DNA from: Paludibacter sp.
GTDB lineage: Bacteria; Bacteroidota; Bacteroidia; Bacteroidales; Paludibacteraceae
Assembly (NCBI GenBank): GCA_028710895.1
Contig: JAQTTH010000002.1
Location: forward strand, 299,605 to 323,604
Direction: 5' to 3'
Length of the DNA stretch: 24,000 nt
Below, piece after piece: positions 1 through 19,964 of this stretch (position 1 is the stretch's first letter; the number at the start of each line of letters is the position of its first letter). Under the pieces are notes generated by a model. The model saw only the letters and a program-made list of their open reading frames with translations. It searched no databases and was not told the origin of the DNA. The position numbers were made by a program, and so were the translations under genes.

Positions 1-1282
1 TGGGCTGCCTTTCGCTTTTTTCCGATCCGATATTAAATTTGGGTGTGCGAATAAAGGAACTTTTAATGCCCACATATGCTTCAATCACTGCAATTGTATT
101 ACTGAGCGAAAGCCCGAGCATATAAACCATAAACATAAAGAAATGATACGGATAAGTTAAGGCATTCTTGTTTCCTTTTTCAATGCTAAAATAGGGAACT
201 GTATAATAAATAAATAATATGATTGTTGGACTTAAGAATAATAAGCCAATATTTTTAATTGGATTTGTTGATTGCTCTTCGCCATATATTGTCATTACGG
301 GTACGCTTACTAAAGCCATTAAGAACACAAAAACAAAAGTAGTACTGTTGAATAAATGATAGAGTGCTTGCAATTTTTGAGTCTTTGTAATGTTGGATTT
401 TAGAACCGTTCCAAAATTGTTCACGAAATTTTGTGCTCCACCTTTTGTCCATCTAAATTGCTGACTACGGATAGCACTCATACTCACCGGTAACTCAGCT
501 GGCGAAATAACATCTTCCAGGTATTTAATTTTCCAACCTTTCAGTTGAGCACGATAACTTAAATCCAAATCTTCGGTAAGTGTATCACCTTTCCAATTTC
601 CGGCATCAAAAATGCACGATTTTCGCCAGACACCCGCCGTACCATTGAAATTGAGGAAATAGTTTTTTTCATCTCTAACCGATTGTTCCATGCTAAAATG
701 AGCATCTAATGCCATAGCTTGCAATTTAGTGTGCAAAGAGAAGTTCCGGTTTATATGCCCCCAGCGGGTTTGCACTACGCCAATACGAGCATCCGTGAAC
801 CATGCCATTGTTTTAGTCAGGAAGTCAGGACAAGGCATAAAATCAGCATCGAAAATGGCAATAAATTCTCCTGTGGCAATTTCTAACCCGGCTTTTAAAG
901 CGCCTGCTTTAAAACCATCTCTGTTAGTACGAACAATGTGCTTAATGTCAATTCCTTTTTTGCTAAGTTCCGCCACTTTCAGGGCAACATGCTCTACAGT
1001 TTCGTCGGTAGAGTCGTCCAACACCTGAATTTCAAGTTTGTCGGAAGGATAATTGATTTTTGAAACTACCTCTAACAATCTTTCAGCCACATACAATTCG
1101 TTGTAAATTGGTAACTGAATGGTTACTTTAGGAAAACTTGTCAGTTGTGGAAAATCCAACTTATCAACCAACTGTTTCTTTTTCAACTTTTTATACGAGA
1201 TCAAAATGTGAAGTTGGAACACACTGTAAATAAGAAAAAGAATGAGGCATAAAATGTAAAAGATCAGTAAAGTGATTCCCAT
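1..1282 (-). CDS. Family-2 glycosyltransferase, membrane-bound processive (cellulose-synthase-like) type; C-terminal end runs off the window
   Basis: Absent from the ORF track because no stop codon lies in the window. My own translation from the ATG at 1282-1280 stays open to position 1 (MGITLLIFYILCL...VTIQLPIYNE...VLDDSTDET...AIFDADF...TEDLDLSYR...SQQFRWTKG...). It has an N-terminal TM helix, the D / DxD / ED / QxxRW signature of processive GT2 enzymes, and more hydrophobic helices after the catalytic domain. It starts 4 nt after the stop of the upstream gene. Confidence 0.85.
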   Translation of the reverse strand, partial: MGITLLIFYILCLILFLIYSVFQLHILISYKKLKKKQLVDKLDFPQLTSFPKVTIQLPIYNELYVAERLLEVVSKINYPSDKLEIQVLDDSTDETVEHVALKVAELSKKGIDIKHIVRTNRDGFKAGALKAGLEIATGEFIAIFDADFMPCPDFLTKTMAWFTDARIGVVQTRWGHINRNFSLHTKLQAMALDAHFSMEQSVRDEKNYFLNFNGTAGVWRKSCIFDAGNWKGDTLTEDLDLSYRAQLKGWKIKYLEDVISPAELPVSMSAIRSQQFRWTKGGAQNFVNNFGTVLKSNITKTQKLQALYHLFNSTTFVFVFLMALVSVPVMTIYGEEQSTNPIKNIGLLFLSPTIILFIYYTVPYFSIEKGNKNALTYPYHFFMFMVYMLGLSLSNTIAVIEAYVGIKSSFIRTPKFNIGSEKSERQP

Positions 1283-1286
1283 AAAA

Positions 1287-1982
1287 TTACATGTATTTGA
1301 ATATCGTTATTAGTATTTTATATCCAGCTCCAATTGTTCCTTTAATTGTTCCTGATACTTTGGAGACACCAATGCGTTGACGGTAGTTTATCGGCACTTC
1401 AACGCAATGCATTTTCATTTTGGCAGCTTTCACCTGCATTTCCACCGTCCAACCATACGTTTTATCCTGCATGTCCATTGCCAAAAGTTGATTAAACTTA
1501 ATAGCCCTGAACGGACCTAAATCGGTAAAATGCTCGTCGTAAAATAATCGAATCATTTTGGTAGCTAACCAATTACCAAAAATTTGCTGAGGTGTCATTG
1601 ACCCTTTTTCGCTCTTGCCTGTGTTGCGGGTTCCAATCACTAAATCGGCATTTAGTTCCAGAATTGGTTGAATAATCAATGGCAATTCAGCCGGAAAATC
1701 GGAATGGTCGGCATCCATAAAAACAATAATATCAGGTTGAATTTTCTGCATTGCAAAGTATTCAATACCTTTCAGGCAAGCCCAGCCATAACCCTGTCTG
1801 TTTTCAGTCAAAACAGTAGCTCCGTTTTCGGAAGCCACTTTAGCAGTGTGGTCGGTTGAATTATTGTTTACCACCACTATTTCGGATACGAGATGCTTCG
1901 GAATTTCTTGTATTACCTTGCCAACAGCCTCTTCTTCATTGTAAGCCGGTATTATAATGCCTATTTTAGGTTTATTGCTCAT
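1287..1982 (-). CDS. Soluble family-2 glycosyltransferase (Dpm1 / polyprenol-phosphate glycosyltransferase-like)
   Basis: 231 aa with an ATG start. It has the GT-A N-terminus IGIIIPAYNEEEAVGKVI and a DxD-like FMDADHSD motif, with no TM segment. It overlaps the upstream ORF by 11 nt. It may correspond to the GT2 'transferase 2' family that co-occurs with ArsS-type radical SAM genes, but this is unverified. Confidence 0.8.
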   Translation of the reverse strand: MSNKPKIGIIIPAYNEEEAVGKVIQEIPKHLVSEIVVVNNNSTDHTAKVASENGATVLTENRQGYGWACLKGIEYFAMQKIQPDIIVFMDADHSDFPAELPLIIQPILELNADLVIGTRNTGKSEKGSMTPQQIFGNWLATKMIRLFYDEHFTDLGPFRAIKFNQLLAMDMQDKTYGWTVEMQVKAAKMKMHCVEVPINYRQRIGVSKVSGTIKGTIGAGYKILITIFKYM

Positions 1983-2604
1983 ACATTTCTATTTGAATCA
2001 CTTTTCCATTTTTGTATTTTTTCCATTCACCCTTTGGTTGGTCGTTTTCATAAATTCCATCACGTGTTATACCATTGCCCAAATAATATCTGAAATATCC
2101 GTTACGCATACCGTTTTTAAAATAACCTTCGCACAATTTATTACCTTGTTCGTCAAAATCCTCCCACCATTCCGTTTTTTTATTGTTCAAGTATTCGCCC
2201 TTCTGTGCTATACTTCCGTTTGAATGATAGTGTATACCTGTTCCATTACGTTGGTCATTTTTGTACATTCCTTCAAACGATTTCAGTTTGCCTGGCAAAT
2301 ACTCTTCCCACCAACCTGTTTTTAAATTTTCCTCATAATGTCCGCCCCTTTGCCAATCACCATTCGGATAATAATATTTCCAATGGCCTGATTTTTTAGT
2401 ATTTATTAGCCAACCTTCATTTTGCAAATTTCCATTACTATAAAAAGATTTACTGTATTCTTTAGAAATGACAGCAACTTTACTTTCAACCAGTTTTCGA
2501 GTGCTGTTAGTAGTTTCAATTTCAGCTTCGTTATTTTTTCCACAAGCAAAAACTAACCCAACAACACACAAAAATACTGGAACAGTACGCAATAATATGC
2601 TCAT
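1972..2604 (-). CDS. MORN-repeat-variant (YwqK-like) lipoprotein
   Basis: Signal peptide ending in a lipobox-like LVFAC|GKNN. It carries repeated G-x-W-x-x-Y-Y-x-N-G / EG-x-Y-K-N-x-x-R-N-G units typical of MORN variant repeats. The track start at 2610 is a TTG; I prefer the ATG at 2604-2602, 2 nt after the upstream TGA. Confidence 0.7.
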   Translation of the reverse strand: MSILLRTVPVFLCVVGLVFACGKNNEAEIETTNSTRKLVESKVAVISKEYSKSFYSNGNLQNEGWLINTKKSGHWKYYYPNGDWQRGGHYEENLKTGWWEEYLPGKLKSFEGMYKNDQRNGTGIHYHSNGSIAQKGEYLNNKKTEWWEDFDEQGNKLCEGYFKNGMRNGYFRYYLGNGITRDGIYENDQPKGEWKKYKNGKVIQIEMYEQ

Positions 2605-2606
2605 AA

Positions 2607-3488
2607 TCAATGTATCAATCTAAATCCCACGTTAAAGGTTTCGCCTGCACCGGCATTTCTTCCAGCTGTAAATTTGGTATATAAAACTTCCGTTTCCAAT
2701 ACTCCTTTTATGAGTTGATATTTCATGCCAACTCCATTTTGTAAAAACCATGAAGAAATAAAGGGTTGCCCAAAACTTGGCCAATACTCATTTTGGAGGT
2801 AAAATGTAATTCTGTCGGTTGCATAATAGCTGAAAAAGGCACTCACCGGATTGGAAAAAGCCAGGCGACTTATGCCAGCTGCCTGTGGTTGTCGTTTATA
2901 GTAAAACCAAGGTGCAACCTGAAAGAACAGTTGAAATTTTGTTCCAATGGGCTGGTCGTAAAATAGTTGGGTGAACCAGATATAACTGTCATCGCTTAAG
3001 TAAGGTTTACCGTTTGTATGTCCTTCCAAATCAGTGGCAATAGGAAAAAGGAAAGTGGATTGCAGGGATAGTTTCGGCAAATTTCGAAAAGGTGCTATTT
3101 TTATTTTTGGGCCAAAACCAGCAACCGCCGTTCGTGAATTCATCGAGTTATCAAACTGAAATACAGCCAGTGGTGAGGAACCAGCAATGTCATTCCGAAC
3201 AGATTTAATCCAAATATCAGCCCCAATGTTCAATGTGGGGGAAATACCATACAGAAACTGGTTTATAGCTGTAAAATAACTGGCTCGTCCATTGTAATTG
3301 GTACGTGTCCCATTCGTATTGAACCCTTGGGTTTGTGTATACAGATTGTTGAATAATTTATATTCCCAATGGTTTTGACCAAGCAAAACCGAAGGGGAGT
3401 ATGCCTGCATGTTTATTTCCGCTACATCGTCTTGCGAATAGGCACAGATAGATAAGAAACAAAATAATATGATTAATTTATTTTTCAT
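2607..3488 (-). CDS. Putative outer-membrane beta-barrel protein (family not recognised)
   Basis: 293 aa with signal peptide MKNKLIILFCFLSICAYSQDD. The rest shows an alternating aromatic/hydrophilic pattern rich in G, Y, F, N and S, consistent with amphipathic beta strands. Its ATG overlaps the upstream TGA (ATGA at 3485-3488). Confidence 0.45.
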   Translation of the reverse strand: MKNKLIILFCFLSICAYSQDDVAEINMQAYSPSVLLGQNHWEYKLFNNLYTQTQGFNTNGTRTNYNGRASYFTAINQFLYGISPTLNIGADIWIKSVRNDIAGSSPLAVFQFDNSMNSRTAVAGFGPKIKIAPFRNLPKLSLQSTFLFPIATDLEGHTNGKPYLSDDSYIWFTQLFYDQPIGTKFQLFFQVAPWFYYKRQPQAAGISRLAFSNPVSAFFSYYATDRITFYLQNEYWPSFGQPFISSWFLQNGVGMKYQLIKGVLETEVLYTKFTAGRNAGAGETFNVGFRLIH

Positions 3489-4861
3489 TTTTTATAGCTG
3501 AATGTTTTACCAATTCTTCCTTCCAATTTTCCGTTCTCTAATTTCAATACACCACGTGGACAAACAGCCGAACAAATACCACAACCCACACACGATGCAC
3601 GTACAATGTTTTCACCTTTTTGAGCATACGCACGCACGTCAATACCCATTTCGCAATAAGTGGAGCAGTTACCGCACGAAATGCACTGACCACCATTGGT
3701 GGTAATCCGAAAACGTGATTTGAAGCGTTGAATTATGCCCATATAGGCTGCCATAGGGCAACCAAACCGGCACCATACACGACTACCCAATATAGGATAA
3801 AAACCAACGCCCACAACACCAGAGAAAGCAGCACCAATAAGAAAACCGTAAGGATGCGTGAAATAAGTGTAAATATCCAAGCCCAGGAATGTACTACTTC
3901 CACTGAAATAACCATACAATACAACTAATGTTATCAATGTGATTAATAATAAAATCCCATAAATCAAATACCGTTCAATTTTCCAGGCTCTCACACTTTT
4001 GTCAGACAAATGACGAAAAGGATCTCCGGCAGTTTCTGCCAAACCTCCGCAACCACACACCCAAGAACAATACCATCGTTTACCAAAATAATAGGTCAGG
4101 AAGGGCGTAATCACAAGAAAACCGATAATACCCCAAACGAGATAAACCATACCCAATGAGCCACCGTGCACCATATTATTTAAATGCCAATCGTTGAAAA
4201 AATAGTAGTTCAATGGCCAGAAATATTTAATGTCCATTGCAAAATATGCTTTATCCGAATTTAAACCCTCCATAATGTTGGGAATTAAATACGCCAAAAA
4301 AAGTTGTGCTATTATTACTACAATCGTGCGGATAATCTGGTATCTGTTGTGTCGGTACTTAAGAATAAATTTGATACCCAGTGTTGTAATTATGAGCGTA
4401 TAAAGCGTACCATACACAAACCATTGCGTAGCCGGCTTACCTGTAAAAAGGTCACTCAAGGGGTTAAATAAAGCGATAAGGTTGGTATTGGCTGCACCCT
4501 TTACTCCCTGACCTAAGTATTCGGGAAACCAATAAAGTACCACATAAAAACCGGTGAGAATAACTGCTGTTATCCAACCCAACAATCCTTTAGAAGTAAG
4601 CGAATTGAACCAGATCCCATGATTCTTAATGCCTGCGGGCAAGCTAATATAGGTTTTGATTGCATAAATCGACGTGCCGACAAAGATAGAAAGTAGCGAT
4701 ACGGTTAGCAGCAAACCGTTGTTTTCGAACTCAACACCAAATAATGTCACTGCCAAAATTAAAAGTCCGAGCGCAGAGAGCGACAGACCAAGCTTTTGAA
4801 GAAATCCTGTTTTATAGGGTTGAATATCAACCACTGACAAACTGTTATATATTGGTTTCAT
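3485..4861 (-). CDS. Polytopic membrane 4Fe-4S ferredoxin-type protein (NapH / CcoG(FixG) / RdxA-like)
   Basis: 458 aa with multiple hydrophobic helices. It carries the Cys motifs CSWVCGCGG and WCRFGCPMAA, plus two classical ferredoxin motifs, CISCGNCSTYCEMG and CVGCGICSAVCPRG. Confidence 0.8.
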   Translation of the reverse strand: MKPIYNSLSVVDIQPYKTGFLQKLGLSLSALGLLILAVTLFGVEFENNGLLLTVSLLSIFVGTSIYAIKTYISLPAGIKNHGIWFNSLTSKGLLGWITAVILTGFYVVLYWFPEYLGQGVKGAANTNLIALFNPLSDLFTGKPATQWFVYGTLYTLIITTLGIKFILKYRHNRYQIIRTIVVIIAQLFLAYLIPNIMEGLNSDKAYFAMDIKYFWPLNYYFFNDWHLNNMVHGGSLGMVYLVWGIIGFLVITPFLTYYFGKRWYCSWVCGCGGLAETAGDPFRHLSDKSVRAWKIERYLIYGILLLITLITLVVLYGYFSGSSTFLGLDIYTYFTHPYGFLIGAAFSGVVGVGFYPILGSRVWCRFGCPMAAYMGIIQRFKSRFRITTNGGQCISCGNCSTYCEMGIDVRAYAQKGENIVRASCVGCGICSAVCPRGVLKLENGKLEGRIGKTFSYKK

Positions 4862-4920: not shown

Positions 4921-6213
4921 TTAAATCAAATTACACACAGTTGATTTGTCGAATTGATTTTTAATTTCGGCTTCGTGATGTTTGAAAAACTCAGGATCGA
5001 AATTGGCTGTTTTCAAATTGTCAATTACATATTCTATGTTTTTCTTTTCCTGAATCCATTGGTCAAAGACTTCGTGTCGCAAGCGGATTCCAAACACATT
5101 TACACCTAAAATATGATTGCCAATCTTGTCGTAAATCAAACGAAGCGATTTAAATTCATTTTTTGATTTCCAAAAAAATGTAGCTTCGTTTTCTTTGGGT
5201 TTCGCCCATACCCAGCCATAAGTTTGATATTCCACATCGAAAAACTTAGCTGAATTAAACCATATTCCGGGTTGATAATCAGACCGATTACCACAAATGG
5301 AATTAGCAACCGTTTCGCCCATGATACGGCCTGTGTACCAAACCTGTTCAATGGGTTTTCGACCACCGGTGGGTGTACGGTGTTGTGCGCAATCGCCAAT
5401 GGCATACACATTCGCCACATTTGTTTCCAAAAATTCATTTACCAGAACTCCCCTTTCTATCTCAATTCCGGAATCTTTCAGAAAATCGATATTGGGTGTA
5501 ACGCCAACCGTTAAGCCAACAAGCTGACATTCAATTTCTTCGTTTTTGCTTGTTACAATAGATTTCACTTTTCCCGTACCAGAGTCTTTAATTTCTATAA
5601 GTTCTGTATTTAGTTGTAAATCAATATGGTGTAATTTTATCAATTCATTAATCATAGCTGATTCTTCATTAGGTAACACGCCATTCCAGAAACTTTTTTC
5701 GCGCACCAGCATGGTTACTTCAATGTTTTTTGATAATAGCATTTCAGCTAATTCAATGCCTATTAAGCCGCCACCTACAATTACTGCGCGCTTTATGGTT
5801 TTATAACTTTTGGTTAGTTTCTCCAAATCTTGTTTATGATATAAACCCTGTACACCGTCCAAATCCTGACCCGGCCAACCAAATTTGTTTGATTTAGAAC
5901 CAGTGGCAATAATTAAATCGTCGTATTGTAGCGATTTCCCTGTTTTCAACAGAACAGATTTTTGATTTGGATCCACTTTCAAAACTGTATCATGCAGCAA
6001 ATCAATCTTGTTCTTTTCCCAAAAATCATTTTCGTAGGGCTGTGTGTGCTCAAACTTCATGTGACCCATAAACACGTACATTAATGCGGTGCGACTGAAA
6101 AAAAAAGGACTTTCTTCGGAAATGACCGTGATACGGTTGTCGTTTTTTTTTCGGATATTTCGCGCTGCAGTAATTCCCGAAATTCCATTTCCTATAATCA
6201 CAATGTGTTTCAT
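4921..6213 (-). CDS. NAD(P)/FAD-dependent pyridine-nucleotide-disulfide-type oxidoreductase
   Basis: 430 aa. It has an N-terminal FAD Rossmann motif (KHIVIIGNGISGITAA), a second dinucleotide motif (RAVIVGGGLIGIELAE) and the conserved AIGDCA motif near the FAD site. A C-terminal extension of about 100 aa is of unknown function. Confidence 0.85.
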   Translation of the reverse strand: MKHIVIIGNGISGITAARNIRKKNDNRITVISEESPFFFSRTALMYVFMGHMKFEHTQPYENDFWEKNKIDLLHDTVLKVDPNQKSVLLKTGKSLQYDDLIIATGSKSNKFGWPGQDLDGVQGLYHKQDLEKLTKSYKTIKRAVIVGGGLIGIELAEMLLSKNIEVTMLVREKSFWNGVLPNEESAMINELIKLHHIDLQLNTELIEIKDSGTGKVKSIVTSKNEEIECQLVGLTVGVTPNIDFLKDSGIEIERGVLVNEFLETNVANVYAIGDCAQHRTPTGGRKPIEQVWYTGRIMGETVANSICGNRSDYQPGIWFNSAKFFDVEYQTYGWVWAKPKENEATFFWKSKNEFKSLRLIYDKIGNHILGVNVFGIRLRHEVFDQWIQEKKNIEYVIDNLKTANFDPEFFKHHEAEIKNQFDKSTVCNLI

Positions 6214-6301: not shown

Positions 6302-7114
6302 TTAGAGTTGCTGTATTAGTTGGGTGTATAATGTAATAAGTTTTGCTTCGGCTTGACCGGCAATGGCAATAATTTCGGGGATATTAACAGGTTTCAGATT
6401 GGCAGGGTCGCATTCGTCGGTCAGTACCGAAATGGCAGCACAAGGCAATCCAATTTGATTGGCTACCAATACTTCAGGCACAGTTGACATACCCACAGCA
6501 TCTGCTCCAATAATTTTCAAATAGCGATATTCCGCACGTGTTTCCAGATTTGGGCCTTTTAAAGCAGCATAAACGCCTTCCCGCAGAATTAGATTTTCTT
6601 TGAGTGCAATTTGTTTGAGTAAGTTGTTTAATTTACTTGAATAGGGTGCCGACATATCGGTAAATCGAGGACCTTGCGAATCATCCTTCAACCCAACAAG
6701 CGGACTATCGGGCAATAAATCAATGTGGTCATCAATAAGCATTAAATCACCTTTTTTGTAATCAAGATTAATAGCTCCTGCTGCATTTGAAAGTAATAAA
6801 TATTTCACGCCCAATGCTTTCATTACACGCACAGGAAAGGTTATTTGCTGCATAGAATAACCTTCGTAAAAATGGAAACGACCTTGCATAGCCAGCACCT
6901 TTTTGCCATTAAGCGTTCCATAAATCAATTTTCCGGAATGAAATTCAACGGTAGATTTTACGAAATTGGGGATATCAACATAATCAATTTGTTGACTAAT
7001 AGCAATTGAATCGACCAACTTGCCTAGCCCTGTTCCCAACACAATTCCTATTTCGGGTTGAAGAATGCCTTTGCTTTCTAAAAAGCTTACTGTTTCATTA
7101 ATTTGATTTTGCAT
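6302..7114 (-). CDS. Purine nucleoside phosphorylase (trimeric PNP/MTAP family)
   Basis: 270 aa. It shows motifs typical of inosine/guanosine-type PNPs: GIVLGTGLG, MQGRFHFYEGY, LLSNAAGAIN, GPNLETRAE and VGMSTVPEV. Confidence 0.85.
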   Translation of the reverse strand: MQNQINETVSFLESKGILQPEIGIVLGTGLGKLVDSIAISQQIDYVDIPNFVKSTVEFHSGKLIYGTLNGKKVLAMQGRFHFYEGYSMQQITFPVRVMKALGVKYLLLSNAAGAINLDYKKGDLMLIDDHIDLLPDSPLVGLKDDSQGPRFTDMSAPYSSKLNNLLKQIALKENLILREGVYAALKGPNLETRAEYRYLKIIGADAVGMSTVPEVLVANQIGLPCAAISVLTDECDPANLKPVNIPEIIAIAGQAEAKLITLYTQLIQQL

Positions 7115-7125
7115 AGAAATATTTT

Positions 7126-7956
7126 TTATGATTTACAATTGTCATTATTACAGCATCCGCCATCGGTTGTACTTTTTTTCATTGCCGGTTCCAGTATTTT
7201 AGTAAAGAACAATGCAGCGAATATTCCACCTACAATTGGAGCAAGCATATAAACGAGAAAAAATCCACCTTGTTGGTCGGGAAAAGCAGCATTACCCCAA
7301 CCAAACATCCAAGCTATCATTCGCGGTCCAAAATCTCTAGCCGGGTTCAAGCCTGCTTGTGTAAGTGGTGCTATCAGGCAAATTATTGAACTAACGGTTA
7401 ATCCTATAAACACAGGCGCAATAGCATTACTTGGCTTACCCACATTGCAGCCTTCGGTAAGTGCAAAAATCATGAGTAATAATATAAAAGTGCCAAAAGC
7501 TTCAGCTGCCATCGCCAATAGCATACCGATACCATGACCACCAATATTATAATACTCCCCAAACATCTTGGCTATTTTTGCTGATTCTTCGGAACCACGG
7601 ATTATATTTTGTGTTTGCTCAAACGAACTAATTGAAGACGAGAATAATATATATACCGTAAGACCTGCAACAAACGCGCCCAGTATTTGAGCGATAATGT
7701 ATGCCGGCAATCTGTCGGCTGACATTCGTTTGCTTATTACCATAGCAATACTAACAGCGGGGTTGAGATGTGCACAGCACAAATGTCGGGTGAGGTAAAT
7801 GGCAAGTGTGACACCAATTCCCCATACCAATGCTATCTGTAAAATGCCCTGATATCCGTTAAACAACACTGATACTGCTACCGAACCGCATCCAAAAAGA
7901 ACAAGTATAAATGTTCCCAAAAACTCACCTAAAAATTCGTTTTTATATTTTAGCAT
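7126..7956 (-). CDS. MIP-family channel (aquaglyceroporin-like) with a Cys-rich C-terminal tail
   Basis: 276 aa. Two NPA boxes are present (HLNPAVS and GLNPARD) with six hydrophobic helices. An unusual tail reads ...TTDGGCCNNDNCKS. Confidence 0.9.
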   Translation of the reverse strand: MLKYKNEFLGEFLGTFILVLFGCGSVAVSVLFNGYQGILQIALVWGIGVTLAIYLTRHLCCAHLNPAVSIAMVISKRMSADRLPAYIIAQILGAFVAGLTVYILFSSSISSFEQTQNIIRGSEESAKIAKMFGEYYNIGGHGIGMLLAMAAEAFGTFILLLMIFALTEGCNVGKPSNAIAPVFIGLTVSSIICLIAPLTQAGLNPARDFGPRMIAWMFGWGNAAFPDQQGGFFLVYMLAPIVGGIFAALFFTKILEPAMKKSTTDGGCCNNDNCKS

Positions 7957-7963
7957 ACATTTC

Positions 7964-8596
7964 TTACTTATATTCCTGAATTAATTTCACTAACTGCGTG
8001 TACTTCATTACATCTTCAACTTTATCCACATCATTCAGCGGAATTAAAGTGTTGTAGGTTAGTTTTTCATTTTCCAACACTGCTATCGTCTGTTTTAGTG
8101 TTTTGTCGGTACTCCATTCAATGTCTTCAAAAAGTGCCGAATGATTTCTCGTCATTCCCAATAAATAGTATCCTCCATCGTTAGCAGGACCAATCACACA
8201 ATCGGTTGATTTTAATTTTTCAAAAGCATCGGCAATTATTTCTGACGTTATTTCATAATTATCGCTGCCAATAATCACTACTCTCGAAAATCCAGCATCA
8301 AAAGCTGCATCAAACGCTCCTTTCATCCGAGTGCCTAAATCAGCTCCATGTTGCTCATGAACCTGAATATTACCCTTTATTTCTAATGAAAACTCTGAAG
8401 CTTCAGCCACAAAAACCAACTTTTCGACATCCAATTGCTCAACTACCTGAATGGTATAATTAAGCAATTCGGTATAAATCAAAAGTGCTTTCAGATTGCC
8501 AATCTCATTTCCAATTCGGGTCTTAACCTTACCTAATTCCGGGTTTCGGACAAACACGATTAAAGCATCGGTTTTATTCATACACTTTATCGCCAT
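7964..8596 (-). CDS. DUF2064 / CofC-like nucleotidyltransferase-fold protein (TIGR04282-type 'arsenosugar biosynthesis glycosyltransferase' family)
   Basis: 210 aa. The N-terminus ALIVFVRNPELGKVKTRIG and the later VIIGSDNYE and GPANDGGYYLLG motifs match my recollection of DUF2064. An alternative ATG at 8581 would shorten the overlap with the rhodanese gene from 23 nt to 8 nt. Confidence 0.65.
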   Translation of the reverse strand: MAIKCMNKTDALIVFVRNPELGKVKTRIGNEIGNLKALLIYTELLNYTIQVVEQLDVEKLVFVAEASEFSLEIKGNIQVHEQHGADLGTRMKGAFDAAFDAGFSRVVIIGSDNYEITSEIIADAFEKLKSTDCVIGPANDGGYYLLGMTRNHSALFEDIEWSTDKTLKQTIAVLENEKLTYNTLIPLNDVDKVEDVMKYTQLVKLIQEYK

Positions 8597-9083
8597 TAGT
8601 CAGCCACTTGCCCCAATCCTTATTATAGGCATGTATTTTATCTGTTTTTTGTTCGGTATTATCAACTACATCAAAGCCCAGGTTTACCCACTCAAAAAGT
8701 CCACCATAAAGATTAAAGACATTTTTATAACCCGCTTTTCGAAGTTTTTCACCTACTCGCTCGCTGCGGTATCCTACTGAGCAATAGACTACTATAGTAT
8801 CCGATTTGGCAATGTCTTTTACTTTTTCGAGTGTAAACGTGTCATAATCAACGAATTTTGCTCCATCAATATGGCTGGCATCGTATTCACTTTGTTTGCG
8901 TGTATCGAGTATTACGATAGCGTTTGGCTCTGATAGCTTTAGTTTTAATTCGGCTGCATTTATAAACGCAACGGTGTTTTTATACATTCCTTTTAGCATG
9001 GCATGATATTGAGTTGTTGATTGAGAAAATGTGCTACCAACAATTGTAAATAATGCGATAAATAATATTACATTTTTTTTCAT
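8574..9083 (-). CDS. Secreted single-domain rhodanese-like sulfurtransferase
   Basis: 169 aa with signal peptide MKKNVILFIALFTIVGSTFSQ. The rhodanese active-site loop is VVYCSVGYRSE, followed by the GGLFEW motif. Its ATG overlaps the arsS TGA (ATGA at 9080-9083). Confidence 0.8.
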   Translation of the reverse strand: MKKNVILFIALFTIVGSTFSQSTTQYHAMLKGMYKNTVAFINAAELKLKLSEPNAIVILDTRKQSEYDASHIDGAKFVDYDTFTLEKVKDIAKSDTIVVYCSVGYRSERVGEKLRKAGYKNVFNLYGGLFEWVNLGFDVVDNTEQKTDKIHAYNKDWGKWLTNGDKVYE

Positions 9084-10132
9084 AACAAAACTATTTCACC
9101 GCCACAACTTGACCCCGCACCAGCAGTGCAGCCATAGCAGTGTTGCGATACTTTTACTTCGCGTTTCAATAAATAATCCAAATCGAAATTCGCCACGTGA
9201 TTTCGTTCATCAGCAGCCACTTTCATGTTCAGCATCTGATTAAAATCACAATCGAATAAATAACCATCCCAACTTACCGAAATCATATTCCGACACATCA
9301 CATTTTCGGCAGCCAATGGATTAAAAGCATTAACAAGCTCTTCCATGTACGAAACGTAATTATCTGTATTTACCAAGTAGTTAAGAAAACGGCTAACAGG
9401 CAAGTTTGTAAGCGCAAATAGTTTATTGAAAACAATGCCGTGTTCGCTCCACAAATGCTCTTTAAACTCGGTTTCGAGCATTGTTTGCGAAGCTGGCAAA
9501 AATGCTCCGGCCGGATTGTAAACCAAATCCAGCAACAAACCACTATCAGGTTTGCCGTAACCTCTGGCATTCAACATCTTCAATGCTTTTATTGAGGTTT
9601 CAAAAACACCTTTTCCACGTACTTTATCGGTGCGGGTGGCATCATAAAACGGCAAAGAACTCACTACTTCCACGCCGTTTTCGGCAAAGAAATCAGGTAA
9701 GTCATTGTGCTCATCAGCTTCCAAAAGTATAGTCAGATTGCAGCGTACAATAATCCGTTTGCCCAAAGCGTGGCAAGCCTTTACAAACCAACGGAAATGT
9801 GGGTTCAATTCCGGTGCTCCACCTGTGAGATCAACAATTGGTATATTAAATTTCTGAATGGCATTTAAGCATAACTGCATGGTTTCTTTGGTCATAATTT
9901 CCTGGCGGTCAGGACCAGCATTTACATGGCAGTGACGGCAAGTCTGGTTACACATTTTACCTACATTTACCTGAAATACATCCAAACCAACAGGTTTTAA
10001 TGAGCTGATATTGTGTTCTTTCAACTTGTCTTTGAAATATGGAACATTAGTCGACTTTGTGGTTACAAGTTCCAATACCTGAAGTTGCCGTAAGGCTTCC
10101 GCTTCTTCTTTCGCTTTATTATATGCTATCAT
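9080..10132 (-). CDS. arsS: ArsS-type radical SAM / Cys-rich domain protein (arsenosugar biosynthesis radical SAM enzyme)
   Basis: 350 aa. The CX3CX2C radical-SAM motif is CNQTCRHCHVNAGPDR. The characteristic C-terminal Cys-rich end is HCYGCTAGAGSSCGGEIVLL. The ORF is uninterrupted, so this is the Cys form rather than the selenocysteine form. Confidence 0.85.
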   Translation of the reverse strand: MIAYNKAKEEAEALRQLQVLELVTTKSTNVPYFKDKLKEHNISSLKPVGLDVFQVNVGKMCNQTCRHCHVNAGPDRQEIMTKETMQLCLNAIQKFNIPIVDLTGGAPELNPHFRWFVKACHALGKRIIVRCNLTILLEADEHNDLPDFFAENGVEVVSSLPFYDATRTDKVRGKGVFETSIKALKMLNARGYGKPDSGLLLDLVYNPAGAFLPASQTMLETEFKEHLWSEHGIVFNKLFALTNLPVSRFLNYLVNTDNYVSYMEELVNAFNPLAAENVMCRNMISVSWDGYLFDCDFNQMLNMKVAADERNHVANFDLDYLLKREVKVSQHCYGCTAGAGSSCGGEIVLL

Positions 10133-10143: not shown

Positions 10144-10479
10144 TTAGAAACTTATTTCTTCGTTTTTATTCATCATTTGCACACTATGAGCCAATACAGC
10201 TCCACCTTTTATGGCAGCTCCCACATGAACTGCTTCCATCATTTGAGCTTCCGAATATCCATTTTTCACACAATTCGTAGTATATGCATCAATGCAATAA
10301 GGACATTGAACTACATGCGCAACCGCTAATGCAATTAAATCTTTTTCTTTTTCCGTTAATGCTCCCTCTTTGAATACTTCGCCATACCAGGCGAAAAACT
10401 TGTCGGCTAAGGGTTTCTGATAATTTCCAATGGTACCAAACTTTTTTAAGTCTTCCGGTTTATAATAATCTTTTGCCAT
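10144..10479 (-). CDS. AhpD-like / carboxymuconolactone-decarboxylase-fold CxxC protein ('arsenosugar biosynthesis-associated peroxidase-like protein' family)
   Basis: 111 aa with a CPYCIDAYT redox motif. Its size and its position 11 nt upstream of arsS match that family's known context. Confidence 0.75.
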   Translation of the reverse strand: MAKDYYKPEDLKKFGTIGNYQKPLADKFFAWYGEVFKEGALTEKEKDLIALAVAHVVQCPYCIDAYTTNCVKNGYSEAQMMEAVHVGAAIKGGAVLAHSVQMMNKNEEISF

Positions 10480-10484: not shown

Positions 10485-11195
10485 TTATTCGTTTAAATTC
10501 CAGTTATATGTTAAGTAACTAATTTTTGCGTTTTTGTCAATTTTTACTTTTGAGTATTGATTCAAAAAATCAATCAGTTTTGATTTTTGTGTAAAATCGG
10601 CTGTAAACCAACTGAATATTTCTGAAATTTCAATGTTTTGATTGGTAATTTTATTTCTTCCAGTATCATTCAGAAAACGTTTCGCACTTTCATCAAGCTG
10701 AACATCCAACGTTTCCGGCAAATAAGCTTTGTTGCTCAATATCGGACATGATTTAGCTGCACAAACAATGGCAAAATGTATGCGTGCGTCTTTATAAGTA
10801 GGACGTAAAATCTTGTTCTCTATGTCGTTGAGCGTATAGGTCTTATTCTCTATTGTTATGAATTTTTTATCCCAAGGTGCACCAATATCCTTAATGCTTT
10901 TGAGTGGATAATTATCCACTATCAATTTTACTGTAAAAGCATTGTAGGCATTTATCCAATATGCTTTCGCTTCGTTGACAGTCCATTTTGCTTTGGGACT
11001 CGTGGTTTTGAGTAGTTGCAAATAGTTATCCAATTCCGCTGCATTGCTTTTAATAGCTTTGTAGTTTACATTGCCCGTAGCCGATACGTATTTATTTAAA
11101 AATCCGTTCCATTTTTCGTGAGAAAAATTACTAATTTGCGCTGAAATTAAGTGAGAACTAATGACTAAACTTAGTGTCAATATTATTGTTTTCAT
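10485..11195 (-). CDS. Secreted DUF547 domain protein
   Basis: 236 aa with signal peptide MKTIILTLSLVISSHLISAQ. The motifs WINAYNAFTV and HFAIVCAAKSCPIL match the DUF547 core. Confidence 0.65.
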   Translation of the reverse strand: MKTIILTLSLVISSHLISAQISNFSHEKWNGFLNKYVSATGNVNYKAIKSNAAELDNYLQLLKTTSPKAKWTVNEAKAYWINAYNAFTVKLIVDNYPLKSIKDIGAPWDKKFITIENKTYTLNDIENKILRPTYKDARIHFAIVCAAKSCPILSNKAYLPETLDVQLDESAKRFLNDTGRNKITNQNIEISEIFSWFTADFTQKSKLIDFLNQYSKVKIDKNAKISYLTYNWNLNE

Positions 11196-11216: not shown

Positions 11217-12248
11217 TTAGCAACCGCAGTTTGCTGGCGAGGAAACGTTTGAGCTTGAGGGCGAACAATCAAAAGCCCCAAAATGGGTTGACTTATCGCC
11301 AGTAATACGGAAATGCTCCGAGAAACGGGTTTCCTGCACCATGGCTGTCGTGTTACCACAAACCAACATGGGTTTACCTGTAATAAACTTGTGATGATCG
11401 TCTAATTCAAAAAAGTGAGAGTGATTCGGAATTGTCCCCAAATAAATGGCTACCTGACCGTAATCTTCGCAAATATCTTCTAACTCCAACTTAAATGCTC
11501 TAATGGTCAACGAAGTAAATTCAATCAATCCAACTTTCTCTTCAATTTCGGTATTGTTAACCGTAATGGGCGAAGAATTAGTAACACGAAAGTCATTACA
11601 TCCAATCTTTAACATCAATCGTCTAAAATCTTCAACGTACATAGCTCCACCCAAACATTCACCATGCAATACTTTGTCATTTGCCAAATGCGTTGGAATT
11701 CGTTGGTTAGCAAAAACATCCGAAAAATAAAGTTCCCCGCCCGGTTTCAACACCCTGAAAATTTCTTTGAAAACTGACTCCTTATCGGGCGATAAATTGA
11801 TAACGCAATTAGAAATAACCACATCTATAGAATTATCTTCTATGCCAATTTCTTTCAGATCCTCAATATAGCCTTGTTTGAAAACCACATTGGGTTTTTC
11901 AAAACCAAACTTGCTCGTTTGCGTATCAACATGTCTCTCGGCCACTGCCAGTTGCTCTGCTGTCATATCAACTCCAATGGACAATCCATTGCTGCCAACT
12001 AATTTAGATACAATATACACATCGCGACCTGAACCACAGCCTAAATCAAGTACGGTTTTTCCTTCGAGCAAAGCCGGAATTGGCGAACCGCAACCATAAA
12101 AGCGGTCTTTTATTTCGTTGTCAATCTGGCTTAAAGCCAACTTTACATCCGGCGAAAGTTTTTCGGTGCTGCAACAACAAGCATTGGTTTGTAAATCGCT
12201 GCTGCTTTGAAGTATTTCGCCATAATATTTTTTTACATCTTCTTTCAT
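11217..12248 (-). CDS. arsM: Arsenite S-adenosylmethionine methyltransferase (ArsM / AS3MT family)
   Basis: The SAM motif is VLDLGCGSGRD. All four As(III)-binding Cys positions of ArsM are present: NACCCS, FYGCGSP, SNCVINLSPDK and HGECLGGA. An extra C-terminal NCGC is present. The track start at 12311 is a TTG; I prefer the ATG at 12248-12246 (MKEDVKKYYGEIL...), which matches the usual ArsM N-terminus. Confidence 0.9.
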   Translation of the reverse strand: MKEDVKKYYGEILQSSSDLQTNACCCSTEKLSPDVKLALSQIDNEIKDRFYGCGSPIPALLEGKTVLDLGCGSGRDVYIVSKLVGSNGLSIGVDMTAEQLAVAERHVDTQTSKFGFEKPNVVFKQGYIEDLKEIGIEDNSIDVVISNCVINLSPDKESVFKEIFRVLKPGGELYFSDVFANQRIPTHLANDKVLHGECLGGAMYVEDFRRLMLKIGCNDFRVTNSSPITVNNTEIEEKVGLIEFTSLTIRAFKLELEDICEDYGQVAIYLGTIPNHSHFFELDDHHKFITGKPMLVCGNTTAMVQETRFSEHFRITGDKSTHFGAFDCSPSSSNVSSPANCGC

Positions 12249-12291
12249 AGATTTATATTTTGATTCTTGTATATAGCTATTTTTATCATTA

Positions 12292-13338
12292 TCATTTGGT
12301 TTTAAATGCAATCTTTATAATTTCTTGTGCCGACTTATTCTGAGGGGTGTAATCAGTATTGTTTATACCACCTGCATTAGTATGTTGCGGATACCATTTC
12401 CACAAAAAAGCACCTTTGAACCATGGTTTATCAGCAAAAGTTTGAAAAAATGCCTGCAATGCATTGCTTTGCGATTGCTGGTTTACGATTGTCGAAATAG
12501 GATTCCAGGGTTCTTTAGCACATTGGTCAACACTTTTGTAACCAATCTCCGTAAAAATGACCGATTTGTTTTTTGATAATCGGTATTGATCAATTTCATT
12601 CATTTCCTTTTGCCAACTGCTTACAAGACTTGCCACAGTTGGCGTGTTTTCATTCGACAAGGGAAAATAGGCATCAATCCCTATATAATCCAACTTATTC
12701 CAAAAAGGCACTTGTTGGTAATCATCCCAATTGGCGGCATAAATCAATTTACCACCGTAAAAAGTTCGGATTGTATCTATTAAATTTGACCAATACTGTG
12801 GACGCTTTTCCACCACCATTTTCAATTCAGTGCCAATGCAAAACATTTCAATATCGAGTGAATCGGCTAAATGAGCAAAATGCAAAATATAAGTTGAATA
12901 ATTTTTCTCCCATGCAGTCCATTCAACTTCAGTAGTAAGATTGAATGCAGCTGGATAAGAATTTCTAACCCAAATTTGGGGTTTCAACATCGTTTTAATT
13001 TCTTTTTCTCTTGCTAATTTTGTGGTTACAATCACTCCCAAATCCGTTTCGCCCCACCATTGATGATTTGGATCGAAAGTAACTTGGGTAGAATTCAATT
13101 GACCAAAAGCAAATGGCATTTGAGTAATATAATTGCAATTTACATCAACTATCGGTGTTATGGCTGTACTATCAAGTGTTTTTCCTCCTGCCACAAAACT
13201 CAAACCATTGAATTCGAAGTGGGCTGAAGCAATGGGCTTTTCATTTACTATTGGTTCTTTTTGACAAGCAAAAAAAGTAATTATTGCGCACATTATCAAC
13301 ACGAGCAATTGATGTTTTTTTAATTTCCTGAATACCAT
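12292..13338 (-). CDS. Clan GH-A-like (beta/alpha)8 glycoside hydrolase, lipoprotein (GH113/GH5-like; family unverified)
   Basis: 348 aa with a lipoprotein signal ITFFAC|QKE. Candidate catalytic glutamates sit in CIGTELK and VIFTEIGYKS, spaced as in 4/7-superfamily hydrolases. It is a paralog of the next ORF and shares the block FWNKLDYIGIDAYFPLS. Confidence 0.55.
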   Translation of the reverse strand: MVFRKLKKHQLLVLIMCAIITFFACQKEPIVNEKPIASAHFEFNGLSFVAGGKTLDSTAITPIVDVNCNYITQMPFAFGQLNSTQVTFDPNHQWWGETDLGVIVTTKLAREKEIKTMLKPQIWVRNSYPAAFNLTTEVEWTAWEKNYSTYILHFAHLADSLDIEMFCIGTELKMVVEKRPQYWSNLIDTIRTFYGGKLIYAANWDDYQQVPFWNKLDYIGIDAYFPLSNENTPTVASLVSSWQKEMNEIDQYRLSKNKSVIFTEIGYKSVDQCAKEPWNPISTIVNQQSQSNALQAFFQTFADKPWFKGAFLWKWYPQHTNAGGINNTDYTPQNKSAQEIIKIAFKTK

Positions 13339-14324
13339 CTCTTAATAATTTTCTCAACTGGTTTATGCTGCGGTGTATAATCCGAATTTGGTTTGTCTAT
13401 GTAAGTGGCATCGTTATTGTACCATTTCCAAACAAAACCTCCAGCTACAAAATCTGTATTCCATACCGCATCATAAAATGCAGTGTAGGCATTTATTTGT
13501 GCAGCCATATTTATTTTCTCGGTTTTGGGCGTTTGTTCAAACTCCCATTGTTTGAATGCTGCATAATCTATGCTTCTGTATCCATATTCGGTAAACAAAA
13601 TCTTTCTACCGTACTTTAAACTCAATTGCTTCATTTTCAATAAAGGTAATTTCCATGCTTTTTGTAACTCTTCCACCGAAGGTGTTTTCTTAGCCGAAAG
13701 TGGGAAATAAGCATCTATCCCGATATAATCTAATTTGTTCCAAAAACTAATGTGATTAAATTCTTCAAAATTAGCCGAATAGGTTAATTTTCCTTTATAC
13801 ACATTTCTGATTTTTGAAATAAGCTCTTCAAAAAAACGACCGTGCAATTGTGTATACACTTGTAATTCAGTGCCTATTCCAAGTAGCTCCACATGCTCCG
13901 ATTGAGCAATTTGTGCTAAAAAAAGCAGATAATTACAATAATTTTGTTCCCATTCAATTCTTGTATTACCCGATAAATTAAAACTTCCAGCCCAAACATC
14001 ATTCATCAACCAACAATGTGGTTTTAAGAACACATGTAAACCTTGCTTTTTGCTACGATTAATTAGCATTCTTAATCCAATTTCGGTATCCCCCCACCAA
14101 TTTTTTGAGCTGTTATACTCCACAATACTACTATTTTTATAAATGAATGCAAAAGGACATATTGCCACCCAATTAGCATTTACTCTGTAAATTGAATCAA
14201 TACCAGTAATTTCAGTTTTATATTTTGGCGAAACAAAAGATACACCATTTATTTTTCTAAAACTCTCACCATGAATCAACTGTGCATACCCTATAATACA
14301 AAAAACAAATACAAGAATTCTCAT
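13320..14324 (-). CDS. Clan GH-A-like (beta/alpha)8 glycoside hydrolase, secreted; tandem paralog
   Basis: 334 aa with signal peptide MRILVFVFCIIGYAQLIHG. It has GIGTELQ and ILFTEYGYRS motifs. It overlaps the downstream paralog by 19 nt. It is the first gene of the 16-gene array. Confidence 0.55.
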   Translation of the reverse strand: MRILVFVFCIIGYAQLIHGESFRKINGVSFVSPKYKTEITGIDSIYRVNANWVAICPFAFIYKNSSIVEYNSSKNWWGDTEIGLRMLINRSKKQGLHVFLKPHCWLMNDVWAGSFNLSGNTRIEWEQNYCNYLLFLAQIAQSEHVELLGIGTELQVYTQLHGRFFEELISKIRNVYKGKLTYSANFEEFNHISFWNKLDYIGIDAYFPLSAKKTPSVEELQKAWKLPLLKMKQLSLKYGRKILFTEYGYRSIDYAAFKQWEFEQTPKTEKINMAAQINAYTAFYDAVWNTDFVAGGFVWKWYNNDATYIDKPNSDYTPQHKPVEKIIKRWYSGN

Positions 14325-16176: not shown

Positions 16177-16216
16177 TGCGGTTTGATATTTTTCGTTACT
16201 TTTGCAGAAAAAAAGT

Positions 16217-16648
16217 ATGGAGTATTCCTTTTCCGGTTCATTTGGAAATCTATCGAGTAGAATTTCGCTGCAACTTAGAAAAGTTCTTATAAACAATTTG
16301 AAGAAGGCCGAAATTGAGATAACGCCTGATGAATGGTTTGTTATCTCAAAATTATATCATTCAGTATCGAGCACACAAAATGATATTGCAGAACATTTGG
16401 GATTAAGTAAAGTGAAAGTTACCCGTTTAATAGAGCAGCTCGAAAGGAATAAATTAATTCAGCGGGAATCTGAAGATGGTGACAGAAGGTTTAAAAATGT
16501 AAGTCTTACTAAAGTTGGAAAATCATTGTATTTGAAAGTTGAACCCATTGCAAAAAAGACATTAACGCAAACATTCTCAGGTTTCAGCGAAGATGAACAG
16601 AAAATATTTTTAGACTTTTATGTTCGGATATTACGTAATTTAGATTAG
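16217..16648 (+). CDS. MarR-family transcriptional regulator
   Basis: The winged-HTH region reads QNDIAEHLGLSKVKVTRLIEQLERNKLIQRESEDGDRRFKNVSLTKVG. It is the only plus-strand gene in the window. The track start at 16202 is a TTG; an ATG lies at 16217. Confidence 0.8.
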   Translation: MEYSFSGSFGNLSSRISLQLRKVLINNLKKAEIEITPDEWFVISKLYHSVSSTQNDIAEHLGLSKVKVTRLIEQLERNKLIQRESEDGDRRFKNVSLTKVGKSLYLKVEPIAKKTLTQTFSGFSEDEQKIFLDFYVRILRNLD

Positions 16649-16651
16649 AAC

Positions 16652-16912: not shown

Positions 16913-16919
16913 AAGTACT

Positions 16920-18468: not shown

Positions 18469-18481
18469 AGATTTAAAGTAT

Positions 18482-18530
18482 AAAAAAACCTCTGCAAATT
18501 GCGTTGAAAACAGGCAACTTAAAGAGGTGA
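18482..18530 (-). terminator. Stem-loop followed by a T-run on the minus strand, immediately upstream of the Abi gene
   Basis: In minus sense it reads cACCTCT-ttaaGTTGcctgttttCAACgcaatttgc-AGAGGT-TTTTTTTA. A 6-bp outer stem and a 4-bp inner stem are followed by 7 T. It could end a transcript coming from the primase side, or be a leader structure for abi. Confidence 0.3.
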
Positions 18531-19907: not shown

Positions 19908-19964
19908 TTCGCTTAGTTGATAATTAACAGTTAATAGTTGAGAATGTAGGATAGATTTATAATG

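Follow-up and report, generated by a model that had tools for sequence, protein, structure and literature searches.

A PunA-type purine-nucleoside phosphorylase and a CofC-like DUF2064 protein as candidate enzymes for the steps after ArsS in a Paludibacter arsenosugar gene cluster

A stretch of 24,000 nucleotides from a Paludibacter sp. metagenome-assembled genome (MAG; contig JAQTTH010000002.1, positions 299,605 to 323,604; hereafter referred to as the window) carries, in an array of genes around the radical S-adenosylmethionine (SAM) enzyme ArsS, one gene for a purine-nucleoside phosphorylase (PNP) and one for a protein of the DUF2064 family. On balance, these two proteins probably act in succession on the product of ArsS, as judged from the co-localisation of their genes, the active site of the PNP and the fold of the DUF2064 protein. 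ArsS adenosylates dimethylarsenite to give 5'-deoxy-5'-dimethylarsinoyl-adenosine (DDMAA; PMC13598754). In the literature searched, roles have been demonstrated only for ArsM and ArsS (PMC13598754 for ArsS), and no enzyme has been assigned to a step after ArsS, the searches combining arsenosugar or ArsS with PNP, methylthioadenosine (MTA) phosphorylase (MTAP), nucleosidase, glycosyltransferase, cluster and DUF2064. This agrees with an earlier annotation of the window made from its letters alone (hereafter referred to as the sequence-only reading), which had proposed a route through these two proteins and described it as undemonstrated. The open reading frames (ORFs) lie exactly where that reading had put them (6302-8596, all on the minus strand), and the genes are identified with scores well above any chance level, but the two genes, which it had taken to be adjacent, are separated by a gene for a MIP-family channel (7126-7956) that it did not mention. 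Its interpretation was supported in part: the co-conservation of the PNP with arsS and the fold of the DUF2064 protein were borne out, whereas membership of the PNP in the MTAP family and the role given to the window's glycosyltransferases were not.

In the proposed pathway, ArsM would provide dimethylarsenite, to which ArsS would add the 5'-deoxyadenosyl group, giving DDMAA. The PNP would then convert DDMAA and phosphate into adenine and 5-deoxy-5-dimethylarsinoyl-alpha-D-ribose-1-phosphate, and the DUF2064 protein would use this sugar-1-phosphate and a nucleoside triphosphate (GTP, by analogy with CofC) to produce a nucleoside diphosphate sugar (NDP-sugar) and pyrophosphate. Finally, an inverting glycosyltransferase of family 2 (GT2), TIGR04283 in most genomes, would transfer the sugar, yielding a beta-riboside as in natural arsenosugars; in the window, the candidates for this step would be a soluble GT2 resembling polyprenyl-phosphate-sugar synthases (1287-1982) and a membrane GT2 (2-1282). 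PNPs yield the alpha-1-phosphate, nucleotidyl transfer retains the configuration and GT2 enzymes invert it to beta; the route would be stereochemically consistent throughout. Its first part is like methionine/5'-deoxyadenosine salvage (MtnP/MTAP, or MtnN and MtnK), in which a 5'-substituted adenosine is converted into a 5-substituted ribose-1-phosphate. It differs from salvage in that the next enzyme would be a nucleotidyltransferase rather than the MtnA isomerase, and in that the 5' group would be dimethylarsinoyl.

The linkage of the PNP to ArsS and DUF2064 was assessed in two samples, one of 80 ArsS loci on contigs, with one genome per species, in which neighbours were counted within 10 kb, and one of 80 metagenomic loci picked by similarity to the PNP alone, in which ArsS or DUF2064 was sought within 6 kb. 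A PNP ortholog (57-65% identity) was found no more than 10 kb from ArsS in 19 of the 80 genome loci, against about 0.4 expected at a chance of 0.5% per genome for a single-copy gene (binomial P = 4e-26, calculated on loci that are related rather than independent). The PNP-linked loci belong to the Flavobacteriales, Chitinophagales and Cytophagales, together with the window itself (Bacteroidales). This makes the PNP the fifth commonest conserved neighbour of ArsS, after the AhpD-like protein (72-73 of the 80 loci), DUF2064 (40-42), ArsM (21-23) and TIGR04283 (21-22). In the PNP-selected sample, ArsS or DUF2064 was present in 39/80 loci, with linkage in 30 of the 39 loci at 60% PNP identity or more and in none of the 10 below 55%. 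Directly abutting DUF2064 on the same strand was the commonest arrangement among the 57 linked PNPs (45/57, in both gene orders, with a modal overlap of 4 nt), whereas 24 abutted ArsM and 12 abutted ArsS, and at least four different gene orders were found in the linked loci. The sequence-only reading would have been abandoned by its own terms if the PNP were not co-conserved with arsS; the counts above show that it is.

In the Flavobacteriia, the genes are arranged in the order ArsS-rhodanese-TIGR04282-PNP-AsSugarArsM-DUF547-TIGR04283, with scores of 221 bits for TIGR04282, 571 bits for AsSugarArsM (cut-off 400) and 233 bits for TIGR04283. Because it is flanked there by TIGR04282 and AsSugarArsM, followed by DUF547 and TIGR04283, the PNP is an internal member of the cluster already named “arsenosugar biosynthesis” by NCBI; no arsenosugar-specific family model exists for it. 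The annotated cluster (TIGR04167, TIGR04282, TIGR04283, TIGR04169 and NF038099) is like that of the window in containing TIGR04167, TIGR04282 and TIGR04169, all of which, with the linked family NF045521, score above their cut-offs here. It is unlike the window's cluster in that its named set does not include the PNP, and in that the window has no TIGR04283 and a general ArsM in place of AsSugarArsM. A rhodanese gene precedes DUF2064 in many loci. The closest relative of the window's PNP (86% identity) is that of Porphyromonadaceae CG2_30_38_12, in which the gene is on the same contig as ArsS, with 9.5 kb of unrelated genes between the DUF2064-MIP pair and the PNP.

The PNP, for which the record of an identical protein reads “purine-nucleoside phosphorylase [Paludibacter sp.]” (source, a Paludibacter sp. 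MAG), scored 169.6 bits against PF01048 (threshold 25.1) and 342 bits against NF006054 (cut-off 218), and its best matches in the PDB were the PNPs 4lna (E = 6e-88) and 4m1e. It narrowly missed the equivalog for inosine/guanosine-specific PNP I (TIGR01700; 291.9 versus 293.35 bits) and fell far short of that for MTAP/MtnP (TIGR01694; 93.5 versus 274.85 bits). Thus, of the earlier assignment to a trimeric “PNP/MTAP family”, the trimeric PunA-type PNP part stands and the MTAP part does not, and the PNP differs in this respect also from the phosphorylase of methionine salvage. The PNP and 139 relatives were aligned with human PNP and MTAP, the sequences of which were checked only by the expected residues at known active-site positions. 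The phosphate, ribose and catalytic residues (R84, H86, Y88, E201, M219 and S220 of the human enzyme) are kept in the window PNP and all 139 relatives. In all 139 clade members, Asp is found at the position of human Asn243 and Ile, Leu or Val at that of His257 (Ile in the window PNP); further substitutions in the window PNP and its relatives are Leu for human Phe200 and Thr for Ser33. In human PNP, Asn243 sets the specificity for 6-oxopurines, the N243D variant gains activity on adenosine and His257 binds the 5'-hydroxyl, and MTAP combines Asp220 with a hydrophobic 5' pocket. The PNP resembles MTAP in its Thr at S33, its Asp at N243 and its hydrophobic 5' pocket. Because Asp at N243 and a hydrophobic residue at H257 are MTAP-like, the active site appears to suit an adenosine modified at the 5' position, such as DDMAA, and the enzyme may work like MTAP though it lies outside that family. 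We therefore describe it as a PunA variant predicted to be catalytically intact and adenine-compatible, with a hydrophobic 5' pocket.

In a neighbour-joining tree, a basal clade was entirely unlinked to ArsS and a large clade was mostly linked, with a few unlinked members; the active-site signature was found in all of them. The idea of a specialised paralog was rejected because no classical active-site position separates linked from unlinked PNPs. Most probably, the PNP is the general PunA ortholog of the organism and no dedicated paralog, its recruitment being a matter of position and co-expression; recruitment of a housekeeping enzyme is a possibility raised by the clade-wide signature and by the existence of close orthologs without ArsS.

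The DUF2064 protein scored 199.1 bits against TIGR04282 (cut-off 134) and 116 bits against PF09837 (25.8), and matched the structure 3cgx with an E-value of 2.5e-28. It also matched the Pfam CofC family PF01983 (31.2 bits, above the gathering score of 22). A profile of 42 cluster-linked members searched against the PDB gave three matches only: 3cgx, which is of the same family, FbiD (6bwg) and CofC (2i5e). In the alignment with FbiD, K25-T26-R27 (KTRL) fell on AKTRL, D112 on D116, and D189 and D191 on D188 and D190, and the KTR and three-Asp residues showed little or no variation across 81 library representatives and 79 locus copies. In FbiD, D116, D188 and D190 hold two Mg2+ ions that anchor the substrate phosphate, and both CofC and FbiD depend on a partner (PMC6450877). 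An AlphaFold (AF2) model built with an alignment of library representatives (predicted local distance difference test score, 95.4; predicted template modelling score, 0.90) was compared with known structures by Foldseek. The first match was 3cgx, and ranks 2-49 were all nucleotidyltransferases: CofC 2i5e (E = 6e-10, template modelling score, TM, of 0.72), FbiD 6bwg, the 3-phosphoglycerate guanylyltransferase 7p97, the MobA-like Rv0371c and further matches to IspD, glucose-1-phosphate cytidylyltransferase, GlmU, KdsB and TarI, some of which act on sugar-1-phosphates. The first glycosyltransferase was ArnC, at rank 50 (TM 0.48), and no GT2 match to Pfam or NCBIfam was obtained for the protein. 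By its modelled fold and its motif, the DUF2064 protein is a CofC/FbiD/MobA-like nucleotidyltransferase, with the activity predicted, and is not GT2-like, as the earlier assignment of a CofC/MobA-like fold had anticipated. The NCBIfam label “glycosyltransferase” for TIGR04282 is probably wrong, because the fold and motif data contradict it.

The likeness to CofC and FbiD, which are guanylyltransferases of phosphoenolpyruvate, 2-phospholactate or 3-phosphoglycerate (F420), extends to the fold (TM 0.66-0.72), to the KTRL motif and three Asp residues for two Mg2+ and the substrate phosphate, and to the CofC Pfam match. Unlike these enzymes, the DUF2064 protein does not reach the score of the CofC equivalog TIGR03552 (29.9 versus 105 bits), its proposed substrate is a sugar-1-phosphate and it has no F420 genes nearby, there being no CofD/FbiA or other F420 gene among the family-annotated genes of the window. 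Fusions of DUF2064 were rare, with one to a HIT domain and one to DUF952 (P0486, L171/L172:8001-9080, and P0496; L numbers designate loci). The HIT fusion is no more than suggestive, because its setting is unrelated and contains neither ArsS nor PNP; the family is therefore not confined to arsenic clusters. In Pontibacter and Adhaeribacter (L010, L011 and L018), two DUF2064 paralogs, one of each subfamily, flank CMD-ArsS, with no PNP within 10 kb.

The transfer of the sugar is the weakest step for this window. The soluble GT2 scored only 37.1 bits against the TIGR04283 equivalog (cut-off 182), whereas true members of that family scored 190-239 bits in L007, L059 and L081; its best matches were AglJ (131 bits), followed by polyprenyl- and dolichyl-phosphate sugar synthases and PpgS. 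The transfer role that the sequence-only reading had given to the GT2 enzymes at 1-1982 is therefore weakly supported, because the window lacks the canonical TIGR04283. GT2 proteins of the soluble type lie downstream of ArsS clusters in 7/80 ArsS and 8/80 PNP loci; in other loci they are paired with a membrane GT2, and a GT87/MptA_B protein is added in L002 and L168. The resemblance of the soluble GT2 to polyprenyl-phosphate sugar synthases, its pairing with a membrane GT2 and the presence of GT87/MptA_B in relatives suggest, by analogy, a lipid-carrier route like that of the mycobacterial methylthioxylose (MTX) cap. In the MTX capping of lipoarabinomannan in M. tuberculosis, the GT2 MtxS (Rv0539) loads polyprenyl phosphate and the membrane protein MtxT (Rv0541c) carries out the transfer (PMC8780516, PMC12088412). 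There too, a 5-substituted pentofuranose is made from a by-product of SAM, and a GT2 like a polyprenyl-phosphate-sugar synthase is encoded both in the window and in its relatives, which also have GT87/MptA_B beside it. The two systems differ in heteroatom (S in place of As) and sugar (xylose in place of ribose), and the likeness is one of gene families. The MTX cluster presumably also contains an MTA phosphorylase (Rv0535) and the small protein Rv0540.

A second possible source of 5-substituted ribose-1-phosphate was found beside DUF2064. In L007, the ArsS (93%), ArsM and flavoprotein of which are 87-93% identical to those of the window, the flavoprotein gene directly follows DUF2064, without the MIP-PNP pair, and the cluster contains an IU-nucleoside hydrolase and a kinase with its best match to S-methyl-5-thioribose (MTR) kinase (109 bits, E = 2.5e-31, below the equivalog cut-off). 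This kinase-hydrolase pair is widespread in the Flavobacteriia. In L168 and L169 it adjoins a TonB-dependent receptor and a member of a divergent sister subfamily of DUF2064, which scores below the TIGR04282 cut-off (80-96 versus 134 bits), and in L170 it has a DUF547 gene on either side; DUF547 also recurs in the ArsS/PNP loci. There was no ArsS within 8 kb in these three further contexts. By its gene content, the kinase-hydrolase/TonB set appears to serve the uptake and salvage of a modified nucleoside. As in salvage, both a one-step phosphorylase (the window PNP) and a two-step nucleosidase and MTR-type kinase (L007, L168 and L169) are represented; they would give the same class of product, a 5-substituted ribose-1-phosphate, and DUF2064 therefore repeatedly adjoins the expected makers of its proposed substrate.

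Several observations weigh against the succession of PNP and DUF2064 after ArsS. About half of the DUF2064-bearing ArsS loci have no PNP within 10 kb, and none was present within that distance at any of the non-Bacteroidota ArsS loci sampled (Verrucomicrobiota, Ignavibacteria and Nitrospiraceae). PNP orthologs with 71-76% identity, among them two at 72-76% and that of L088, lie in unrelated contexts, and the enzyme therefore has a role independent of ArsS. The active-site signature extends to the whole clade, including the basal clade of 26 PNPs without ArsS linkage, and none of the six positions separating linked from unlinked PNPs is a classical active-site residue. The sequence match of the DUF2064 profile to FbiD and CofC is weak (E = 0.24 and 0.37), and the products of CofC and FbiD donate a phospho-group, with release of GMP, rather than a glycosyl group, whereas a glycosyl donor is needed here. 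The canonical TIGR04283 transferase was not found in the window by NCBIfam scores. Finally, the hydrolase of the kinase-hydrolase pair carries a signal peptide, yet its partner kinase must work in the cytoplasm; because of these signal peptides, the module may scavenge external nucleosides rather than serve biosynthesis.

The alternative that best survives the evidence, although we consider it unlikely, is the clearance of by-products: a housekeeping, MTAP-like PNP of broad specificity would dispose of MTA, or of the 5'-deoxyadenosine left by abortive cleavage of SAM, and recycle the adenine, with DUF2064 acting elsewhere. Such a function is favoured by the presence of the signature in all clade members, linked or unlinked, by the occurrence of close orthologs without ArsS and by loci with ArsS and PNP but no nearby DUF2064 (L096-L098). 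It is also in line with two papers, according to which radical SAM enzymes are subject to inhibition by 5'-deoxyadenosine, for which salvage proceeds through a phosphorylase or through a nucleosidase and a kinase (PMC6079011, PMC8102628). Nevertheless, the PNP is most tightly associated with DUF2064, with overlapping reading frames (45/57), and not with ArsS (12/57), and in its productive reaction ArsS uses up the adenosyl radical, with no release of 5'-deoxyadenosine. No MtnA-type isomerase or 5-deoxyribose-shunt aldolase was present among the annotated recurrent neighbours (top 45 clusters, those other than the window's being sampled by Pfam). Among the previously unlabelled clusters annotated in this search for nucleosidases, isomerases and aldolases, only generic neighbours of ArsS were found: sigma factor, histidine kinase, SDR, ABC ATPase, epimerase, aldehyde dehydrogenase, response regulator and DUF2461. 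Moreover, to our knowledge, clusters of radical SAM enzymes do not usually bear a PNP.

Somewhat more doubtful is the possibility that DUF2064 is itself a glycosyltransferase, with DDMAA or ribose-1-phosphate as the direct donor and no nucleotide activation. The NCBIfam title of TIGR04282 (“arsenosugar biosynthesis glycosyltransferase”) and the PDB title of 3cgx (“putative nucleotide-diphospho-sugar transferase”) point in this direction, and the fold can be counted among the GT-A-like folds in the wider sense. The Foldseek ranking, with nucleotidyltransferases from rank 2 to rank 49, the conserved CofC/FbiD motif for phosphate and Mg2+ and the lack of any GT2 family match nonetheless argue for a nucleotidyltransferase, and a separate GT2 (TIGR04283) is usually found further along the same operon. 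A third alternative, which we hold to be very improbable, is that the PNP serves in arsenate reduction, its arsenolytic activity, described for mammalian PNP, yielding ribose-1-arsenate that is reduced by thiols to arsenite for ArsM. The reduction of arsenate to arsenite by PNP and dithiols in vitro (Gregus & Nemeti 2002 and Radabaugh 2002, cited in the review PMC12608789) fits this idea, as do the fact that no ArsC was seen in the window and the presence in the array of a rhodanese and a flavoprotein of the disulfide-reductase family; the same review considers a role in vivo to be unproven. Arsenate reduction would also leave unexplained the operon pairing of the PNP with a nucleotidyltransferase, the N243D and H257I changes, and the hydrolase and MTR-kinase-like kinase of L007, neither of which can perform arsenolysis. 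Adjacency without functional meaning, through inherited synteny or chance, might be suspected from the closest relative, in which 9.5 kb of unrelated genes separate the PNP gene from MIP, and from the MIP gene between PNP and DUF2064 in the window, but is scarcely credible given linkage in four orders of bacteria, with at least four gene orders, overlapping reading frames and 19 linked loci where about 0.4 were expected.

The array comprises 18 genes, all on the minus strand, from position 15798 down to position 2, with intergenic gaps of -23 to +88 nt (Table 1). In the direction of transcription, it encodes an AhpD-like protein, a protein of the fatty-acid-hydroxylase family, two GH113 proteins, an ArsM-like methyltransferase, DUF547, the TIGR04169 AhpD-like protein and ArsS, followed by the rhodanese, DUF2064/TIGR04282, MIP, the PNP, a pyridine-nucleotide-disulfide oxidoreductase, a NapH-like protein, two exported proteins and two GT2 enzymes. 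Leaders resembling those of exported proteins or lipoproteins were recognised by inspection in the rhodanese, DUF547, both GH113 proteins, the 293-aa protein and the MORN-repeat protein; because so many of the proteins begin in this way, much of the array appears to act outside the cytoplasm. A scan for promoters and terminators, which does not cover the promoters of Bacteroidota, gave no excess over shuffled sequence and none in the intergenic gaps. Upstream of the array (16202-17471) are the gene of an extracytoplasmic function (ECF) sigma factor, with a small ORF downstream of it, and that of a MarR-family regulator in divergent orientation, a set kept in the two closest relatives (L006:2169-3422 and L007:1047-2325); all of these are candidate regulators of the cluster. 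The region flanking the cluster (17566-23923), with an Abi_2 abortive-infection protein, DUF6371 with a zinc ribbon, DUF3987, two HTH_17 (excisionase-like) proteins and a short integrase-family ORF, is a probable integrated mobile element.

Table 1. Positions of the genes discussed, in the window unless a locus is named.
Feature	Position	Strand	Family matches and remarks
Two GH113-family proteins	12292..14324	-	family match; signal or lipoprotein leaders
ArsM-like As(III) SAM methyltransferase, general type	11217..12311	-	NF008823 199 bits, below its cut-off
DUF547 protein	10485..11195	-	family match; signal-like leader
AhpD/CMD-like “arsenosugar biosynthesis-associated peroxidase-like protein”	10144..10479	-	TIGR04169, above cut-off
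ArsS, radical SAM	9080..10132	-	TIGR04167 438 bits (cut-off 300); PF04055 and PF12345 (DUF3641)
Rhodanese-domain protein	8574..9083	-	NF045521 “rhoda_near_glyco”, above cut-off; N-terminal signal-like leader
DUF2064/TIGR04282 protein, 210 aa	7964..8596	-	PF09837, TIGR04282, CofC PF01983
MIP-family channel, 276 aa	7126..7956	-	PF00230 157 bits
PNP, PunA-type (trimeric-family), 270 aa	6302..7114	-	Pfam PNP_UDP_1/PF01048, NCBIfam NF006054
Flavoprotein of the pyridine-nucleotide-disulfide oxidoreductase family	4921..6213	-	family match
NapH-like membrane 4Fe-4S protein	3485..4861	-	family match
293-aa protein and MORN-repeat protein, exported	1972-3488	-	leaders by inspection
Soluble GT2, 231 aa	1287..1982	-	AglJ 131 bits best
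Membrane GT2, cellulose-synthase/PgaC-like, cut by window edge	2..1282	-	family match
Kinase (~329 aa) and IU-nucleoside hydrolase pair	L007:12753-17707; L168:4319-9959; L169:4112-10181; L170:6948-10764		

The other genes of the cluster are conserved to different degrees. The TIGR04169 AhpD-like gene adjoins ArsS in 73/80 loci. The ArsM of the window is not of the AsSugarArsM type (NF038099; 121 versus 400 bits), whereas the dedicated AsSugarArsM proteins of the Flavobacteriia score 562-571 bits (L081:13227-14192 and L087:4843-5808); a general ArsM in place of AsSugarArsM, together with the lack of TIGR04283, characterises the Paludibacter-type cluster. The MIP protein has an NPARD second motif (GlpF/aquaglyceroporin-like, by inspection) and a Cys-rich tail (...GGCCNNDNCKS), and could serve as a channel for As(OH)3, methylated arsenicals or glycerol. 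Only in this lineage does its gene stand between the other two; the closest relative (L002/L006) has it in duplicate, and few ArsS loci elsewhere have one (3/80). The cluster of the closest relative also has a 728-aa protein without a Pfam match (L006:11160-13346), inserted between ArsS and the rhodanese. The flavoprotein was found near ArsS in 14/80 genome loci and in 11/80 PNP loci, always paired with a NapH-like gene, and the pair may act as electron donor to ArsS or in the reduction of As(V) species. It also follows ArsS-DUF2064 in L027 (a Verrucomicrobiota MAG), L063, L066, L070, L084, L087 and others, and in L054 (Ignavibacteria) the flavoprotein gene follows DUF2064 at a cut contig end. 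GH113 genes recur in or beside the clusters, in five of the 80 ArsS loci (L070, L074, L081, L082 and L085) and 10 of the 80 PNP loci; the homologs have signal or lipoprotein leaders and are usually on the strand opposite to the cluster.

The enzyme families and the annotated cluster were already known; what is new is the proposed role of the PNP, the nucleotidyltransferase function predicted for TIGR04282 and the hydrolase-kinase module found in parallel. Comparative genomics thus leads to a specific hypothesis that names three candidates, the PNP, the DUF2064 protein as maker of the NDP-sugar, and a GT2, either TIGR04283 or another one, and culturable hosts are available in Kordia, Mariniflexile, Salegentibacter and Confluentibacter. 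If true, it would provide the first function for the DUF2064 family, which has more than 16,000 representative sequences. It also points to the Bacteroidota as overlooked makers of organoarsenic glycoconjugates, with a bearing on the cycling of arsenic and on the arsenic species present in food webs. The Bacteroidota are not known to produce arsenosugars; the cyanobacteria in which these are proven include Synechocystis and Nostoc, which have ArsS loci. A much broader proposal, which taken as a whole we regard as speculative and improbable, is that many Bacteroidota make, from arsenite, an envelope glycoconjugate that bears 5-dimethylarsinoyl-ribofuranose, by a complete route through ArsM, ArsS, PNP and DUF2064 as NDP-sugar synthase, and then TIGR04283 or a polyprenyl-phosphate GT2 with membrane/GT-C transferases, and that the module of TonB receptor, periplasmic hydrolase and MTR-like kinase (L168 and L169) scavenges the same or related 5'-modified nucleosides. 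Such a route, if it exists, would be the arsenic counterpart of the mycobacterial methylthioxylose cap.

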